NCBI GenBank assembly: GCA_030265395.1
Contig: JARFYF010000007.1
Span: 74,071,384 to 74,135,383, forward strand
Reading direction: 5' to 3'
Source of the DNA: Rhina ancylostomus
Lineage: Eukaryota
Length of the DNA: 64,000 nt
Under the pieces are notes generated by a model. That model was not told where the DNA came from. It searched no databases and saw only the letters and a list, made by a program, of their open reading frames with translations. Positions 19,795-62,027 of the stretch are shown one piece after another. A program made the translations under genes and the position numbers. Positions within the stretch are counted from its first letter, which is position 1, and each line of letters begins with the position of its first letter.

Positions 19795-20164
19795 ATGAGA
19801 AACAGGCCTGCAGATGCTGGAATCTGAATAAAAGTCACCTGTGATGCTGGATGAACTCAGCAGGCCAGGCAGCGTCCGTGGAGAAAAGCAGACAGTAAAT
19901 GTTTCGGGTCGGGTCCCTTCTTCAGGACTGAAGATAGGAAAGGGGAAGCCCAATATATAGGAGTGATAAGCAGAGCCGTGATAAGTGAACAAAAGAGGGG
20001 AGGTGGGGTGGGCACAAGGTGGTGATAGGTAGATGCAGGTGGGTGAGAGTGGTAGGCTGGTGCAGGGGAGGAGGAGAGAGCAGATCCTCTGGGAGATGGG
20101 TGAAAAGTAAGGGGTGGGGGGGGAGAAGAGAGGGGATAGATAGGCCAGGACAGGGAAGAAAATA
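19795..20164 (-). mobile_element. Penelope-like element terminal (pLTR) fragment with a hammerhead-like motif
   Basis: Minus strand cagtcCTGAAGAagggacccgacccGAAAcatt...gctgcctggcctgctgagttcatccagca...ttccagcatctgcag. Confidence 0.7.
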
Positions 20165-38667: not shown

Positions 38668-40319
38668 CAAACAATCATCATAAACTAAACTCGCCATGAG
38701 AAAATTAAGCCTTGCCCAATTCAGTTTAGGTATACTTTTAAGCTGTGATGAGTGTTCATTAACCCTTCTATCCCACAAGAGTAAATGTTAAAAGTTTCAT
38801 TCATTCATATTGTTACGTATATTCTCCCCCTCCTCCATGTTTTTTTTCATTTCTTCAACTTCCTCTGAACCTACTCTAACATTTAATTGATCCTTCTAAA
38901 ACGCAACTTATTTTCAGTCTTTCAGCCTGATTTGTTAAGTTGCTTTCCCTGTTCATTCCAATCCCAGTTACCCTATAGAGGGTCCAGCAGCTTGGAGATT
39001 AAAGGGAAAAGGGCAAATTTAACCAACAGCAGGCAGTGTTTCTTGACCAGAAACTACAAAATTCTGAGCTGTTGTAACTGCCACATAGTAGGATTAGGAA
39101 GTGACGATGTTAGTGATATGATAGATAGGATCAGTGTTAATCTTTTGTCAGAGGTATATTCACTATTATTTAGTAGTTTGAGACTCCTAAAGTGTCAAAG
39201 AACTAACATTTAATGATGTACAATTTGCCTCGTATATGCAAATATCAATTGTAGCTTTTGTCAAAAATTAAAACACCCATTCACACATGCTAAAGATTTT
39301 ATGCCAAAAATCATTGCCAAATTAAATTAGGCTGGTGGATTTCCTTGGTGTCGAAACCAAAAAGTCATCTAAAAGCTAATAACAGAGCTAAATTTACCAA
39401 AACAAAATGTTGCAAAAGTAGTGAGACAGAAAAGGGCTATAGGATGAAATGTGAGGGAAGTGATTCAAATACATTTTGACTAGAACCCTACAAAATGGAG
39501 TAGCATAGGGTGGTGTTTATTACTTAATCATTAAGTTGGTAGTTTCAGAGTAGACTTAGGCGGTAGTTGAACAGACACATCAAACATTGATTTGCAGTGC
39601 ATCAAGAGATGGTTGGAGTGTGGGATTCAATTGGATCTTACATTCAGACATAGGCACAACAGGCTGATGAAATTAAAGCACCTTCACAATTTCCTGTCGA
39701 CATGTCTTGTTTTATTGATGTAACCGGTTCTATTAGCAACTTTCCTCTTGATTGAAAGCATCAAAGACTTGAAGCCCTTGCGTTTCCTCTTCCCAGCCAC
39801 ATTTACTGTTGAATTTAAATTGAGACTCAACACCTTATCTTGTCTTCCTATTTCTTCTTTCCAGTCCTAAGGCTTCCAACTTTGTATCATTTAGTTACTG
39901 TTTATTTACTCTTTCTTATTTTACTCAGTTTAAACCCACATTAGTCTTTTCCTCAAAGTAAGGAAAGACTGGATGATTCTGAATGTGCTACTTCTGTGCC
40001 TTATTTTTGAACGTGTCTTTAAAATGTTATCCTTCAGTACATTATGCAAACTAAGAATTTGGAATGAGTTTGGAAGCATTCATAGAAGAAATTTTTGTGG
40101 GCTGTTCATGGGTTGGAACATTTAGTTCTGATAAATTTTCCTAAACATCTGCTTGAGCTTGTAGATTTGTGAACATCTGTCTTATCTCAGTTTCCTTTTT
40201 GTGAAGTGATCACACATTCAAATCCAGTTGACATTGAAGGTTTTGGTGGGTCTTCAAGACTGTAACTGGATTTGTTTGTGTGATCCAGTAAAACCACAAT
40301 TTTTTGGTACAAAGCAAAA

Positions 40320-40440
40320 TGGTACAAATGCTGGATATCTGAAATAAAAAATAGTAAAGGTAAGAACTACTTGGGTCAGGAGCAATCTGTGGAGAGAAAA
40401 CTTAACATTCAGATCCATGTCCTATTTTAGAACTGGAAAT
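40320..40440 (-). mobile_element. Degenerate Penelope-type terminal fragment
   Basis: aaatgctggatatctgaaataaaaa...gggtcaggagcaatctgtggagagaaaacttaacattcagatc; same family as 19795-19930. Confidence 0.5.
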
Positions 40441-48799: not shown

Positions 48800-48970
48800 C
48801 CCTGTCAGACCACTCCCCCTCTCTTTATACTGGCTATCTTCCATCTTCATACTCAGTCTCAGGGTTTCGACCCAAAAACATTGACAATTCCTCCACAGAT
48901 GCTTCTGAACACGCTGAGTTTCTCCAGCAGATTGTTGCTGCAGATTCCAGCATCTGCTGTCTCTTGTGTC
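48800..48970 (+). mobile_element. Penelope-type terminal fragment (hammerhead core deleted)
   Basis: cagtctcagggtttcgacccaaaaacattgac...gctgagtttctccagcag...gattccagcatctgc. Confidence 0.6.
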
Positions 48971-49287
48971 TTCATCAATTCCCATACCCTCCTGTGATCA
49001 CTTTAAGTTCTTAGCGCCAATTCCCCAAACAAATCTTTTGACTTGCAGCATTTATCTAATCAAAATAATTATTTTAAAAAATACACTTAAATTTCCACTA
49101 AATCTTACCTGCTTCCTTGGAGCTAGTTAATCTTGTTTCACAACTTTAATTATCCATTTCGTGGTCATCTTGCTAAAAGTAGGCAATGTGCTATATAGTT
49201 TTAAAGTTCATTCTATAATTGGAGTGAAATAATCTCAATTGTCAAAGTTTCTTCTCTTGATAGAACTGGTTTTTGGTGTGTTTACAG

Positions 49288-54379: not shown

Positions 54380-55375
54380 CTTAGGTCGGTATGGTGCACA
54401 GATTAGACATATTGTTAATTGGATCATCAGCTCCTGCTCCTCCATAATTCAGTATATATACCAAATAGAACACAAGAAAATAGATGCATCAAGCGTGCCC
54501 TGACATTCAACATGCTCGTGGCTGATTTGCCTCCAAGCCTCATCTCTTCTGTGCCAGTTCCTCACAGCTCTCAATTCCCCAAGCTTTCAAAACTTTATCT
54601 ACCTCTAGTGGTCTAGCCTCCACAACCCTCTGCGATAGAGAATTCCAGAAACCCCAAGTTCCATGAGAAGAAATCCCTACAGACCTCAGTTTGAAATGAC
54701 TGCCCCCTTACTTCCTAACAACATACAAGACTCTCCCACTATTGGAAACCTCTCAACATCTACCGTGTTGTGTGCCTTTAGGATCTCGTATGTTTTGATA
54801 TGGTCACCCATTATTTTTTCTAAACTCCAAAGGACATGGGTCTAATTCAGCTGTTTGTGATAGGGCAACCTGCTCGTCCCAGGAATTAGCTGACTTAATC
54901 TCTTCTGGATTGTCTCCCTGTGCTAGCACATCCTTAAATTAGAGGACCAAAACAGTACTTCAGGTGCAGCCTCACCAATAACCTGTATAATTGTAACAAT
55001 ATTTCTCCATTTTTAAGCTCCAGCGTCCTAGCAGTAAAGGCCAGTATGCCATATGCTACCTTAATTACTGGCTGTACCTACATGCTAATTTATTTCATGT
55101 GCAAGAACCACTTGATCCTGCAGTATTCCAGTCATTTGCAGACTCTGCATTTAGATAAGCTGCCTTTTGATTCCTTCTATCATTGCATGATCCTAGCTCT
55201 TTCCTATATTAAACTCCATTTACCAGATCTTTACCTACTCTCTCAACCTGCCTATATCCTGATGCAGAGTCCAAGTTATCCCTCACAGCATGCCGTCCCA
55301 CCTATTTTTGTATCATCAGCAAACTTCGATATCTTGCACTCTGCCCCCTCCTCCAAGTCATTGATTGTAGCTAAT
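54380..55375 (-). mobile_element. CR1 LINE ORF2 3' fragment
   Basis: Reverse of gatatcgaagtttgctgatgatacaaaaatagg (KFADDTKIG, RT motif) at ~55300-55330, followed by downstream CR1 sequence. Confidence 0.8.
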
Positions 55376-55377
55376 TA

Positions 55378-56200
55378 ATTGGTCATTGGTTTATTATTGT
55401 CACATGTAGCAAGAGGTAGTGAAAAGTTTTTGTTTGCGTGCCATCAACAGATCCATCCATACTTAAATATGTTGAAGTAATACAAAAGTGGAAAAAATTT
55501 AGAATGCAGAATATATTGTTACAATTACAGGGAAAATGCAGTGCAAGTAGTCAAAGTGCAAGGACCATGATGAGGTAGATTGAAGATCAAGAGTTTATCT
55601 CTAGCGTATAAAAGATCAGTTCAAGAGTCTGATAGCAGTGGGATAGAAGCTGTCCTTGAGCCTAGTTTTGTGTTCTGAAGCTTTTGTATCTTATGCCCGA
55701 TGGGAGGAGGGAGAANNNNNNNNNNNNNNNNNNNNNNNNNNNNNNNNNNNNNNNNNNNNNNNNNNNNNNNNNNNNNNNNNNNNNNNNNNNNNNNNNNNNN
55801 NNNNNNNNNNNNNNNNNNNNNNNNNNNNNNNNNNNNNNNCAACTCTCTGCAACTTCTTGTAGTCTTGGGCAGAGCAGTTGCCAAACCAAGCTGTGATGCA
55901 TTTGGATAGGATGCTTTCAATGGTGCTTTTTTTTAATTGGTCAGGGTCATCCGGGACATGCCAAATTTCCTTAGCTTTTTGAGGAAGTAGAGGTGCTGGT
56001 ATGCTTTCTTAATTAAAGCATCCATGTGGTTGGACCAGGACAAATTGTTGGTGATGTTTATACTGAGAAACTTGTAGCTCTCAACCATCTCCACCTCAGC
56101 GATGTTGATAAAGACAGGAGCTTGTACTCTGCCCTGCTTCCTGAAGTCAATGAACAGCTCTTTTGTTTTGTTGACATTGAAAGAGAGGGTTAACACCATT
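55378..56200 (-). mobile_element. Rex1/Babar LINE 3' portion
   Basis: Minus ORF LSFNVNKTKELFIDFRKQ...VEMVESYKFLSINITNNLSWSNHMDALIKKAYQHLYFLKKLRKFGM. Confidence 0.85.
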
Positions 56201-56639
56201 TCACCAGGCTCACTGTCTCTTTCCTGTACTCTGTTGTTTAAATAATGATGGGCCAAGGACTGATCCTTGGGACATTTAACCAATTTCACCATTCCATTCT
56301 GAAAATGACCTTTTTATTCTGATTATCTTTCTTCAATGTGATAACTAATCTTCAATCCATATTAACACACTTAACNNNNNNNNNNNNNNNNNNNNNNNNN
56401 NNNNNNNNNNNNNNNNNNNNNNNNNNNNNNNNNNNNNNNNNNNNNNNNNNNNNNNNNNNNNNNNNNNNNNNNNNNNNNNNNNNNNNNNNNNNNNNNNNNN
56501 NNNNNNNNNNNNNNNNNNNNNNNNNNNNNNNNNNNNNNNNNNNNNNNNNNNNNNNNNNNNNNNNNNNNNNNNNNCCTCCAGCATTTTGTCTGTGTGTGTG
56601 TGGCTTTAGGTTCCAGCATCTGCAGAATCTCTTGTGTCA

Positions 56640-57090
56640 AAAGTTTATATTGTGTCCCTGACCTTTAGTTCTAGACTGTTCAGCCAGATGAAACATCCTC
56701 CTTGTTTACATACTTTTTAAACAAAAAAAAAGCCCTGTTGAGCCCTCTAGGATTTTACATTTCAATGTCACCCTTTATTCTTCTAAACTCTCAAGGCCAA
56801 GCCTGCTTACTCTTTCATCATATGATAGTCCTGCCATACCAGGAACCAGTATACTGATTTTTTGTTTCTGCACTCCCTCTAAGTATATCCTTTTAGATAA
56901 GGGGATGAAAATTGCATAGAGTACTCTGTGTTTCCTCACTAAAACCCTATATAACATTGTAAGGCACATTTGCTCGTAGTTGAATCTTCTGGTAATAAAG
57001 ACCAACTTAGCATTTGCCTTCCCAACTACCTGCTGCACCTGCATGTTACCTTTTCAGTGATTTGCCTACAAGGACACCCAGGTCATTTTA
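56640..57090 (-). mobile_element. CR1 LINE fragment
   Basis: Minus ORF QVQQVVGKANAKLVFITR...LYRVLVR...GMAGLSYDERVSRLGLESLE. Confidence 0.8.
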
Positions 57091-57236
57091 GTCCACTTTT
57101 CACTCAAATCATGGTTGGTATTGTCAGTTTCATCATTGGAAAGAGATGAAATAATTTGTTTATATGTTTGCTTTAAAACCTAGCTAGAATTGCTTCCAAA
57201 TAACATGAAGTGGTTTTTCTCATGGTCTTTCCACAG

Positions 57237-57333
57237 CTCCATTCGGCGAGGTGAAAGTCACTGGTGGATGAAAGGTTCCACACCTCCACAAATTTCTGAA
57301 ATAATAATTAAACTAATAAAGGATATGGCAGCA
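57237..57333 (+). CDS. MYCBP2: MYCBP2 exon (SIRRGESHWWMKGSTPPQISEIIIKLIKDMAA)
   Basis: ccacag acceptor, GCA|gtaagt donor; phase 2-0. Confidence 0.94.
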
Positions 57334-57861
57334 GTAAGTTGAAATTATCTGAGTATTTTGCTTCAGTAAAACAGGCTTCAATGAAAAATGAATCTTTAAT
57401 AGAACAATTTTGTCCACATAGTAAAATGACCAATCAAAGTGCCTTAAATATAGAAATATCATATTGAATCTAACTTCATGTTTGCTCTCTGGGAGTTTAC
57501 ACATGCTAATTGTGTAAAAGTTTCTTTTTGTTTACAAATTAAGAATTTTACTCTCTCTCAATCTAGAATAAATAAAGCTTTAGCTTTCAGAGTGATTTGC
57601 ATATTGGTCTCACACCAAGCGAATAGAAGACTTAGTCCTGATTTTTCTATTTTTGTTTTATAATATCTTGTTGATCTCATTAAGAATGCATACAAAATAT
57701 TCCTCTCATGATGAAAGTTGGATTGCAAATGTAAAGGGGCACAGCATCAAGTTGTGCAATACCAGGTTTTGCAAAGTGCAATTATGAGGACAGTAATTCC
57801 TCATTTGACTTTGTAAATCTCTTCAAGTCAAGTCAGTGAACTAGAAGAGACTGGAGCAAAG

Positions 57862-58860
57862 TATTAACATTTCAGATCAGTGTCCCTTCATCAGAATGGG
57901 AAAAGTGAGAACGAGGATGTTTAAGTTGCTTTTGACTTGTGTATCTGCTGGAAAAGCACATACTAATTGGAAATCAAAAATCTGCAAATGTTGGAAATTT
58001 GAAATTAAAACGAGGGCTGGAAACAAGCTCTTTGAATCCAGTGAATTGCATTCAATGCCAGAAATTCAATGAGATTCCACTGCCCCTCTCTGTGTTTTGA
58101 AGAGACCTATCATTTTGCAATTCCCTGATTCACTGTGTTCCATCTCCTTTAACCACTCCCTTCCTCGTGGCACTTCCCAGTGCAACTGCAGGAGACGCAA
58201 CAGCTACCCTTTTTCACCATGGAGGGACCCAAAGTGAAACAATTAATTTGCACTTCCAATCTTTTGCATTGTGTTGGTGATCTTTATAATGGTGAAACAA
58301 AACTCAAATTGGGTGACTACTTTGCAGGACACCACCATTCAGACCTCAAGGGTGACCTTGAGCTCCCATTCTCCAGTCATTTTAATTCTCAATCCCATTC
58401 CCACTTGGACCTTCTATTACTGTTCCAACGAAGTCCAATACAAGTTTGAGGAACAGCACCTCATCTTCCATGTAGGTACATTGCAGGCTGCCATACTCTA
58501 CTGAATTCAAGAAGTTGTGATCACTAGCCTTCCCTGCTTGTGTCAGGCCTAGCCAGTTCTGATGTATGGTCCATCCACCTGTAACACTTAATTTTTCTCT
58601 TTCCACTCATTTGCCCAATTTGTTAGATATTTCTAGCATTTTTTTTTGTTTTCTCCACTTCTCTAAATGCCCTCCTTCATGTGTTAATGAGATAGTGCTG
58701 GCAACATCCTGTTATCTGGATAACTTCTTGGTGTCCACTCAGTCACATATGGTCCCTTTGTTCTCTCCACTCTCTCCCTCCCTCACCCCCATGTAACTTG
58801 AATACCCTTGTATTCTCACTTTTCCTGTTCTGATGAAGGGACTCTGACCTGAAATGTTGC
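57862..58860 (+). mobile_element. Penelope-like retroelement remnant: GIY-YIG endonuclease C-terminus flanked by inverted terminal repeats
   Basis: ICTSNLLHCVGDLYNGETKLKLGDYFAGHH...LPFSSHFNSQSHS and KFEEQHLIFHVGTLQ match PLE GIY-YIG motifs; ~48-bp inverted repeats at 57864-57911 and 58813-58860. Confidence 0.8.
57864..57898 (-). ncRNA. Minimal type I hammerhead-ribozyme-like motif (PLE-associated, inverted copy)
   Basis: Minus strand att-CTGATGA-AGG gacactga TCT-GAAA-TGT-T-aat; stem I att/aat. Confidence 0.55.
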
Positions 58861-58862
58861 TA
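58826..58862 (+). ncRNA. Minimal type I hammerhead-ribozyme-like motif (PLE-associated)
   Basis: tgtt-CTGATGA-AGG gactctga CCT-GAAA-TGTT: conserved core boxes and a 3-bp stem II; stem III palindrome AACGTT decayed to AATGTT. Confidence 0.55.
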
Positions 58863-59404
58863 AATATTTACATTTTTAAAAATTTAAGCAAACAGAAAAG
58901 TTTGCCACTGCAGGACACAATTTGAATTGCAATGTAAAGACAATTCTACATGTTTTCAGAGAGAGGCAACACTTCATTGAAATTTGATTCCATCTCTTCT
59001 ATTGTGGTTGATAAATGTGGGGGCTACTGGAATTCTGTAACCAATCATTAGATTTTGTTATGGAACTTCAGCTGATATTTCAGGGTAGAACCAGTACATT
59101 TTTTGGGAATAAATGTCCAAATCATCAAGAGGTATAGTGGAAAATGTGACGACATAAAATGCATGCACACAGACACATCATCCTGGATCAAGACTTATTA
59201 GATTTGTTTAATTTCAGTAAAGATCATCTTGGTCAAGTTTTCATGAATATCTGGAGAGGTTGCAAGTCCTTCTGAAAGTAGTTCTGTTAGGAGGGGAAGA
59301 AAGCTAATTCACATATTAAAGCAAAGACTTCCAGTTTGAAGAATTTTGATAGCCAGTAAGAAATGAACCAATAATGTTTGAATAAAATAATTTAACTTTT
59401 TCAG

Positions 59405-59524
59405 GGGCACCTGTCAGAAGCCTGGTCCCGTGTAACAAAGAATGCTATTGCTGAAACAATAATTGCCCTAACAAAGATGGAAGAAGAATACAGGGTTCCT
59501 GTTCAGTGCACTACAACAACCAGG
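59405..59524 (+). CDS. MYCBP2: MYCBP2 exon (GHLSEAWSRVTKNAIAETIIALTKMEEEYRVPVQCTTTTR)
   Basis: tttttcag acceptor, AGG|gtaata donor; phase 0-0. Confidence 0.94.
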
Positions 59525-59634
59525 GTAATACTTATTTGCTGTGTAAATAAAGTATATAAGAAACAGGAAAAAAAAGCATTTAGCAAAAGTAAATGTACCT
59601 GGCAATTGCACTCAAACTGTCATTTGCTTCACAG

Positions 59635-59736
59635 TTATGGTTGGCTCTTGCTTCACTGTGTGTGCTGGATCAAGACCATGTTGATAGGCTTTCCTCTGGC
59701 AGATGGATGGGGAAGGATGGCCAACAAAAACAAATG
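59635..59736 (+). CDS. MYCBP2: MYCBP2 exon (LWLALASLCVLDQDHVDRLSSGRWMGKDGQQKQM)
   Basis: tcacag acceptor, ATG|gtaagg donor; phase 0-0. Confidence 0.95.
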
Positions 59737-61300
59737 GTAAGGAAAAGGGGGTTTTCATACATTTGGATCACTATTGATTGATTCTTGTCCAAATGAGCTG
59801 GATTCAAACTCAATGCAAGGAGTAGTATTTGACATTGACCCAAACAGGAAGGCCCATTAATAGATCTAAGGAAGAATCTGAAACTGTAGAGTGGCTTGCA
59901 GAAAATAAATATTATAGTGTGAGGGGAGGTGGGTGAAAATGGCAGGTGAAACTTAATGTAAGCACCTGCAGGGTACTGAATATAGTAAAATAAGCAAAGT
60001 GTATGCCTAATTTCATAATTCCTTGCACAATAGAAGGAAGTCATGCAACCCATCGAATCTGTGCTGGCTCTGAGAGCAAGCTCATCAATCCCATCTGGTG
60101 CTGAAATTAAAGATAATATTTAGGAGTCTTGGTAGAGTTCACATATGTCTAGGAATGCTGAAGAACTGCCAACAAAGCTAACTGAAAATTGAACATAGCC
60201 AAGCTAAATAAATGTTGGCCAGAGAAGATGTGATTCACCTTGCTATCTCGCTCTTGATGATTGGAAACTTATGTTATTTTGTTATTGCTTCTTGCTTTGT
60301 TAATAACTGCCTCTCAATTACAGAGTTATTTTTAACTATATACACTACATCACTGTTGATGCAAGAAATCATATGCACAAAAATTAGGATCAGTGAGGAA
60401 GTTAGCTGTCCACTTGTGGGATATTGTGTGGGCAAAATGTGAATATTGGGTTATGCAAATAGCAAGGTAAAAGGAATGTAAAGTTGCTAGGAAATCTAAA
60501 TGGACAAATTAACAATTCGCCTTACTAATTGCATGATTCTTCAGCCATTTATTGCTTCAGAATAGTGTAAGAGTGATCATTACCAGTATAGAATAATATC
60601 ATTATATCTCCATAAAGTTGGCGAAAAATCTGATATCTTAATTTCCTATACGCCTTGCTTTCTTCCCCCTTCCAAAGAAACTTTCCCCTCTTAGCCATAT
60701 CTTTATTGCTGTCCAAGCTGATCTTGAAGTAATTTCTTTCTGCTGTGATGTCTTTGTATGCAGAGCCAGATTTTTTGCATCAACTCCCTAACAGATAGAA
60801 ATTCGTAGTTGACTGGTTGGAATGAACAAATACTTCATTGATATTCACTAGCTTAGGGCAACTGCATAGTTGAAAGCATTCTGTATCTTCCTTATGAGGG
60901 TTTATAATGGCTTAGTTATATACTCATGGGTGATCTGGTCCCTCTAGTTAAAATCGAGATAAAAATTAACAGCATTTTGAAAAAATTAAGAGTTCAAATA
61001 AACATTCTTATCTGAACTCCAGTTTAAAGCAGATCATATATTGCAATTAAGAATGAAATGTATTGCTTGGCCAAATCTCATTGTTGGTATAACATAAATA
61101 ATTTAGATCCTGTAATTTCTTATTGCAAAGATTAAGCAATTTATCTTGCCAAAGGATATTCACAGATGTACAACTGAATGTAACATTCATCATTTGCGCT
61201 TTCTTTGAACTAACAGCAGAATGCACTTAATCAAAAGTATTATCTTTTGCATTATTTATTTTAATTGACTAAAATGACAATCAAGTTATCTTATTCGTAG

Positions 61301-61429
61301 CCAATGTGTGACAACCATGATGATGGTGAGACTCCAGCAATTATCCACTGCAACGTGTGTGGGAATCTTTGCACAGACTGTGACCGGTTTCTCCATCTTC
61401 ACAGAAGGACGAGATCTCATCAAAGACAG
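61301..61429 (+). CDS. MYCBP2: MYCBP2 exon, B-box-like zinc finger (PMCDNHDDGETPAIIHCNVCGNLCTDCDRFLHLHRRTRSHQRQ)
   Basis: tcgtag acceptor; non-canonical CAG|gcaaga (GC) donor needed for frame and homology. Confidence 0.92.
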
Positions 61430-62027
61430 GCAAGAATTAAATTCAAAGCATTCACATAGGGTATTAAAAGACGATCAAGGATTTTGAAATATTTTCGCAT
61501 GCTATTAACTAATATTAGGGTAGCTTTGCAGCAATATTTTGCACTCTTGTAGAAGACTTAATGACTTGAGCTTTGGGCCCCCAAATGACTTGAAACANNN
61601 NNNNNNNNNNNNNNNNNNNNNNNNNNNNNNNNNNNNNNNNNNNNNNNNNNNNNNNNNNNNNNNNNNNNNNNNNNNNNNNNNNNNNNNNNNNNNNNNNNNN
61701 NNNNNNNNNNNNNNNNNNNNNNNNNNNNNNNNNNNNNNNNNNNNNNNNNNNNNNNNNNNNNNNNNNNNNNNNNNNNNNNNNNNNNNNNNNNNNNNNNNNN
61801 NNNNNNNNNNNNNNNNNNNNNNNNNNNNNNNNNNNNNNNNNNNNNNNNNNNNNNNCTATTTTGTAAACTGGACATGTTAAGATAACTCACACGTGACCGT
61901 ATAACCAATTCTCATTATTCTGAAAGGTGCTGTCAAAAGCATTGTTAACTTTCTAAAGCAAAATTTTACCAAATGACTAATTTGCTTGATTATTCCCATT
62001 TGAATTAATCTAGCTTTCAAATTATAG

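Follow-up and report, generated by a model that had tools for sequence, protein, structure and literature searches.

A decayed Penelope-like insertion with an inverted terminal copy and probably dead hammerhead motifs in a MYCBP2 intron of Rhina ancylostomus

We conclude that the insert found in a MYCBP2 intron, within the 64,000 nucleotides of Rhina ancylostomus DNA analysed here (the window), is probably an old, 5'-truncated, endonuclease-bearing Penelope-like element (PLE) insertion with an inverted terminal copy, whose hammerhead motifs are likely dead relics and which has no function for the host. The host gene lies on the + strand, with 23 of 29 protein candidates matching the flanking exon and several of them named MYCBP2, while a cluster-atlas search with the MYCBP2 exon returned unnamed clusters only. 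The host intron (57334-59404, + strand, phase 0, 2071 nt, GT...AG as read from its splice dinucleotides) is preceded by an exon at 57237-57333 (+ strand), an open frame reading SIRRGESHWW...KDMAA that ends at GTAAGT and takes its gene name from the next exon, and is followed by an exon at 59405-59524 (+ strand) with 85-90% identity to proteins named MYCBP2. Since the gene is on the + strand, the plus-strand hammerhead has the sense orientation that the earlier note had given it.

Its sequence marks the insert as Penelope-like (Neptune-like), truncated at the 5' end and carrying an inverted pLTR. A family profile built from 37 endonuclease-bearing segments matched it across 58051-58861 with 454 bits (E 2e-139), and the frameshifted 3' end of the PLE ORF, placed at 58050-58520 (+ strand) by the profile and by BLASTP, retains remnants of a CxxRxxC linker motif and of a GIY-YIG endonuclease. 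The inner segment matched the endonuclease region of the family member L236 with 37% identity over 102 aa (E 5e-13) and 61% over 23 aa (E 2e-8), and the Penelope origin proposed in the earlier note is upheld by this match together with that of the profile. None of the 3 window endonuclease pieces matched Pfam; the proposed GIY-YIG nature of the segment holds through L236 and through a better preserved family piece, L062, which matches GIY-YIG PF01541 at E 6.6e-4, below the curated cut-off. The truncated window copy has no RT left; at L227, a related locus, RT motifs lie upstream of the endonuclease in its reading frame and match RVT_1 weakly (E 0.049 and 0.0011). No intact ORF was found among 13 candidate loci read, the 12 long-frame loci all being broken, and an apparent 1441-aa frame at C51 was rejected as an intact element because it is an N gap. 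For the extra zinc-finger motif that the Neptune/Nematis clade has in its RT-EN linker, the family profile shows CNCRRCNTC and the window CNCRRRNSY; the Neptune-like clade label, which relies on the linker motif described in bioRxiv 2021.04.23.441226, is tentative.

The insert is composed, in order, of an inverted piece (57866-57927 plus 57965-58023), the ORF end (58050-58520), a first hammerhead-derived repeat that we call repeat A (58553-58650) and a second, repeat B, which runs up to 58858. The inverted piece is a 5'-truncated copy on the minus strand (57866-58023) at the 5' end of the insert, and its inner part, 57965-58023 (minus strand), corresponds by profile matches to the tail end of repeat A. 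An inverted terminal copy had therefore been correctly recognised from the sequence, but the left piece reaches farther than first described, to about 58023.

The arms form an inverted repeat of 46 nt (57866-57911 / 58813-58858; 91% complementary, spacing 901 nt), the longest inverted pair in the region searched (55000-62000), which can be extended to 64 nt at 84% (E 3e-13). CTGATGA...GAAA-TG-TT is present in both arms, and both hold the core boxes CUGANGA and GAAA, U16.1-H17 and the bulge before stem II, a set that is incomplete in repeat A. The layout claimed at the outset, inverted repeats with hammerhead cores flanking a decayed GIY-YIG segment, is thus borne out; both of the repeats then listed were found, but a third, degenerate one had been missed. 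The left arm (57866-57927, minus strand) is an inverted pLTR arm with a minimal hammerhead whose core starts at 57894 and whose predicted cleavage nucleotide H17 is at 57866; it is antisense to MYCBP2 and hence no ribozyme in the pre-mRNA. The right arm (58795-58858, + strand) belongs to repeat B and carries the sense minimal hammerhead, with the core at 58830-58836, GAAA at 58851-58854 and the predicted H17 at 58858. The third repeat, repeat A (58553-58650, + strand; identified as a direct repeat, by the family profile and with a covariance-model score of 14.8 bits), has a dead core with A9 and A13 replaced, as also seen in the family majority, so that the only same-sense dimer partner of the sense hammerhead is dead. 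Two tandem hammerhead-derived repeats, 270-340 nt apart, are present at the 3' end of the family (window 58553-58858, L008, L011 and L018). Since the core of the first is dead in most of the copies read, the subfamily would have spread with no intact partner in the same unit.

Both motifs are damaged. Stem I is broken in the sense copy, where 1 of 4 inner Watson-Crick pairs is left, whereas the antisense copy keeps 3 of 4; 3-4 such pairs are kept in 44 of 76 family copies. For stem II, the register in PMC4209133 (a bulge, then G10.1-C11.1) leads to an A-bulge followed by GGGWC/GAYCY, which replaces the AGG/CCT register of the earlier note. In this register each arm shows G-U at 10.1-11.1 and a mismatched A-A at 10.4 (the left stem reads G-U, G-U, A-A), so the G10.1-C11.1 pair and an intact stem II are missing from both. 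An A at 10.4 occurs in 1 of 76 family copies, yet it is shared by both arms, which are therefore probably of one source. Stem III (15.2-16.2) is UG in both arms and can form wobble pairs only, meaning that the dimer-forming palindrome is lost. The change from CG to TG in stem III, previously read as a sign of weakened activity, is real, but it is ordinary CpG decay and the main lesion is elsewhere, because the sense copy is without stem I.

An Rfam scan returned no hammerhead family among its 2 matches at E up to 10. A covariance model was then derived from 48 family copies chosen by pattern; it is pattern-biased and scores mainly sequence, and it placed the two arms first and third in the window, at 42.7 bits (rough E 3e-8 over 64 kb) and 40.5 bits (1e-7). 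The hammerhead model search proposed earlier thus failed with Rfam and succeeded with the family-built model, whose scores, together with the core boxes in both arms, argue for the minimal type I identity assigned to them. Stems I and II were paired in 83.5% of the cells of the 48 pattern-picked family rows, versus 18-44% in slid controls; covariation was not above shuffles (115/500), and the monomer folds of the two motifs were not more stable than shuffles (z -0.86 and -0.45). Elsewhere in the window, a family hammerhead at 19887-19935 (minus strand, antisense to MYCBP2; 42.2 bits) retains C11.1 and most of stem I, and further family tail fragments lie at 1782-1853, 33559-33621, 34909-35011, 40308-40400, 48861-48976 and 56576-56640 (the last by eye). 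The minus strand holds 6 of the 8 profile matches in the window.

The family is abundant and decayed. Of 1,515 candidates from a DNA search of the animal's genome, 40 were scored, yielding about 40 other places of 68-80% identity, and three motif patterns were found 195 (intact CG), 2,067 and 4,543 times, with 0 control matches each. Among the first 30 of the 2,067 places, stem III was CA in 14, TG in 5, CG in 5 and other in 6, and position 11.1 was T in 23; G-U at 10.1-11.1 dominates the decayed family (36/48). From these base counts, the changes in stem III and at 11.1 read as ordinary CpG decay, and the window copy carries in addition several deletions of at least 12 nt. Inverted partners were read by eye at about 6 of 19 endonuclease loci. 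Many copies among L021-L096 begin no more than about 10 nt upstream of the core (profile starts 53-80, core 71), a pattern that the selection may partly cause. At L055, L118 and L145 an older copy is interrupted 1-2 nt past its H17 by an inverted family copy, and in L149 and L158 the same post-H17 site holds other repeats; this position may be a favoured insertion target. Another inverted repeat of 46 nt and 91%, which encloses a family fragment (L012, 1179-1224 / 2070-2115), was rejected as unrelated to the hammerhead, its left arm being itself a long palindrome.

In four other organisms (B, C, D and F), contigs span the insert together with the flanking exons in colinear order; 4 of 18 listed sequencing runs were aligned in a first round and 4, one of them new, in a second. 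The sequence past GAAA is changed in organism C and is about 7 nt shorter, and the alignment of organism F ends within the core, at 58833, with at least 139 nt of unaligned extra sequence before 58900. The left junction of organism F is colinear without gaps and is therefore old. These alignments mark the insert as old, being common to five organisms, and the sense hammerhead as not conserved, being altered in C and broken in the alignment of F.

The preferred explanation supposes a single insertion event before the five sampled organisms diverged, as suggested by the rare A at 10.4 shared by both arms. Both target strands would have been primed at insertion, consistent with the two-strand cleavage and extension described for a Poseidon element in vitro (PMC11167929), and neutral decay through CpG loss and deletions would have followed. 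What remains to be explained is how the arms end. Family copies usually run 60-110 nt beyond H17, their profile ends clustering near +60-80 and +95-110, whereas both window arms end within 0-2 nt of H17; apart from them, L033 is the only one of 146 core-covering profile hits to stop at H17 to H17+4. We consider it rather likely that normal tails of 60-110 nt were lost later. The ends could instead have been fixed at insertion, if the ribozyme had cut the transposon RNA at H17 and the element's protein had used the cut 3' end for the priming of both target strands, leaving a 10-bp target-site duplication (TSD) around an element that is dead today; we regard this as unlikely, and each of the two readings requires one coincidence. 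An origin at insertion draws its appeal from the junctions: both arms end at H17, and a possible TSD, with its left copy (GCAAAGTATT) at 57856-57865 and its right copy (GCTAAATATT) at 58859-58868 (both + strand), abuts both at zero offset. The copies agree at 8 of 10 positions at the exact junctions, which may be chance: random junction pairs do equally well in 0.4-0.5% of cases (p about 0.005). The length fits the TSDs of the family, which measure 10-14 bp (a score of at least 7 at 12 of 76 loci, versus 7.5% in the null); the old left junction of organism F also favours ends fixed at insertion, and PLE insertions with inverted pLTRs have TSDs of 8-10 bp (PMC3846280). In addition, in vitro work on the Anolis PLE showed its protein to cut both strands, to extend them and to aid cleavage by the hammerhead (PMC11167929), although the main in vitro substrate there was uncut RNA and no reads were found to end at the cut site.

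The right flank (58859-58888, + strand) can be read either as the right TSD copy plus host DNA or as the family tail resuming after a 36-nt deletion. In favour of the tail, and against ends fixed at insertion, 11 of the 14 letters of 58859-58872 agree with the family tail at offset +36 (p 0.0125), and organism B has 4 extra bases behind 58872, of which 3 match the next family-tail letters by eye; local and anchored tests of this likeness were not significant (p 0.17-0.70), and landing in an older family tail might also explain it. The left flank is weakly tail-like (anchored p 0.047; score 5 versus a family median of 55), and neither flank gave a significant match to any fetched family locus. 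The extra sequence on the right side of organism F likewise speaks against ends that date from insertion, and so does the family as a whole. A search for stops at H17/+1 gave 61 places, all read, of which 16 were without a tail match and 7-8 were true stops by eye, or about 0.3% per position when corrected for an estimated pass rate of 0.28 and for 4,543 cores. The control at +4/+5 gave 52 places, 30 of them read, with 10 lacking a tail match and 3-4 true stops by eye, a rate of about 0.3-0.4% per position whose denominator is estimated, not counted. Family ends therefore show no peak at H17 relative to this control, and in a younger subfamily 0 of 30 copies read (of 53) stop there. A partner arm at H17 with a TSD of 8/10 or better was seen in 0 of 8 other H17-stopping copies, siblings with both arms at H17 and a TSD were found neither among 15 head-to-head pairs nor at L267, and at least 4 of 7 other H17 stops arose by later insertion of other repeats. 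Deletions starting at H17+1 occur in other copies (L238 and others), within sets enriched for such stops.

The remaining explanation concerns the present: the inverted pair would be retained by the host for use as a regulatory hairpin or as an ADAR substrate, either masking an intronic ribozyme or adjusting the splicing of MYCBP2. In a fold of 57820-58900 the arms pair in both the minimum-energy and the centroid structures, with a predicted duplex energy of -94.6 kcal/mol, and the sense core bases are paired to the left arm with p 0.97-1.0. As a folding prediction this supports the geometry put forward in the earlier note, in which the arms could pair and mask the core, and a predicted duplex of about 60 bp with two non-wobble mismatches in the 46-nt core (one of them A-C at 57876/58848), in an insert that persists in five organisms, might be taken as a sign of use. 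Arm pairing is, however, not special to the window locus, because adjacent head-to-head partners occur at 15 of 76 motif loci and opposite-strand pairs are described in PMC4209133; such pairs are common by-products of PLE insertion. Moreover, both arms lie more than 500 nt from either splice site, and the motif to be masked is structurally broken, altered in organism C and interrupted by the end of the alignment in F, for which reasons we set aside a special or regulatory role as very improbable. Under the preferred explanation, a decayed insertion, the right motif alone is sense in the MYCBP2 pre-mRNA and is predicted to pair with the left arm and not to cleave: it has neither stem I nor the stem III palindrome, it lacks an intact partner, and the duplex of the arms would compete with it.

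Importance of the insert for host regulation is unlikely, as it is one decayed copy among thousands. It is doubtful that the insert preserves in the genome a trace of hammerhead cleavage in vivo, with both strands primed at the cut end and the arms stopping at H17 inside a 10-bp TSD. If it did, PLE hammerheads would cut in animals and the cut RNA would be retrotransposable by a rare second route. Insertions with both arms ending at H17 inside a TSD would form a DNA record of cleavage that can be counted in any genome; the count was negative at the family level here, and this locus is therefore only a candidate for such a record.

The inverted-pLTR layout of the insert is already published: PMC3846280, PMC4209133 and bioRxiv 2021.04.23.441226 describe it together with dual opposite-strand motifs, PMC4209133 giving pairs 100-700 bp apart. 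In PMC4209133, single minimal hammerheads showed no cleavage in vitro, and the function of PLE hammerheads is called unclear in bioRxiv 2021.04.23.441226. One chondrichthyan was sampled, and retrozymes were depleted from introns in Xenopus, according to bioRxiv 10.64898/2026.07.22.740005. In the main texts of the open literature, no paper was found on the window PLE family, which the supplements of PMC4209133 may list, and none that lists insertions ending at the hammerhead cut site.

RECK HH9 is among the conserved intronic hammerheads of amniotes, canonical and deeply conserved. The window motif shares with it the sense orientation in a vertebrate intron but is minimal, broken and not conserved. 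The insert is closer to the Neptune-like EN+ PLEs, as described in PMC3846280 and bioRxiv 2021.04.23.441226, in its C-terminal GIY-YIG, its pLTR hammerhead, its inverted 5'-truncated copy and its heavy 5' truncation, and its candidate TSD has a length within the 8-14 bp range. It differs from them in that the window copy is without RT, its arms stop at the cut site and not 60-110 nt beyond, and its family's 3' end has two tandem hammerhead-derived repeats with the first core dead. The motifs resemble the minimal type I PLE hammerheads of PMC4209133 in having CUGANGA and GAAA, one bulged base before stem II, a short stem I and a two-base stem III; unlike those, the window copies have G-U at 10.1-11.1, A-A in stem II and a non-palindromic UG, and the sense copy is without stem I. 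Finally, the Anolis Poseidon element PAc, as described in PMC11167929, shares with the window family a pLTR hammerhead and two positions past it at which copies usually end, but the PAc ends are internal RT start sites and not the ribozyme cut site, and the window copy is a fossil.
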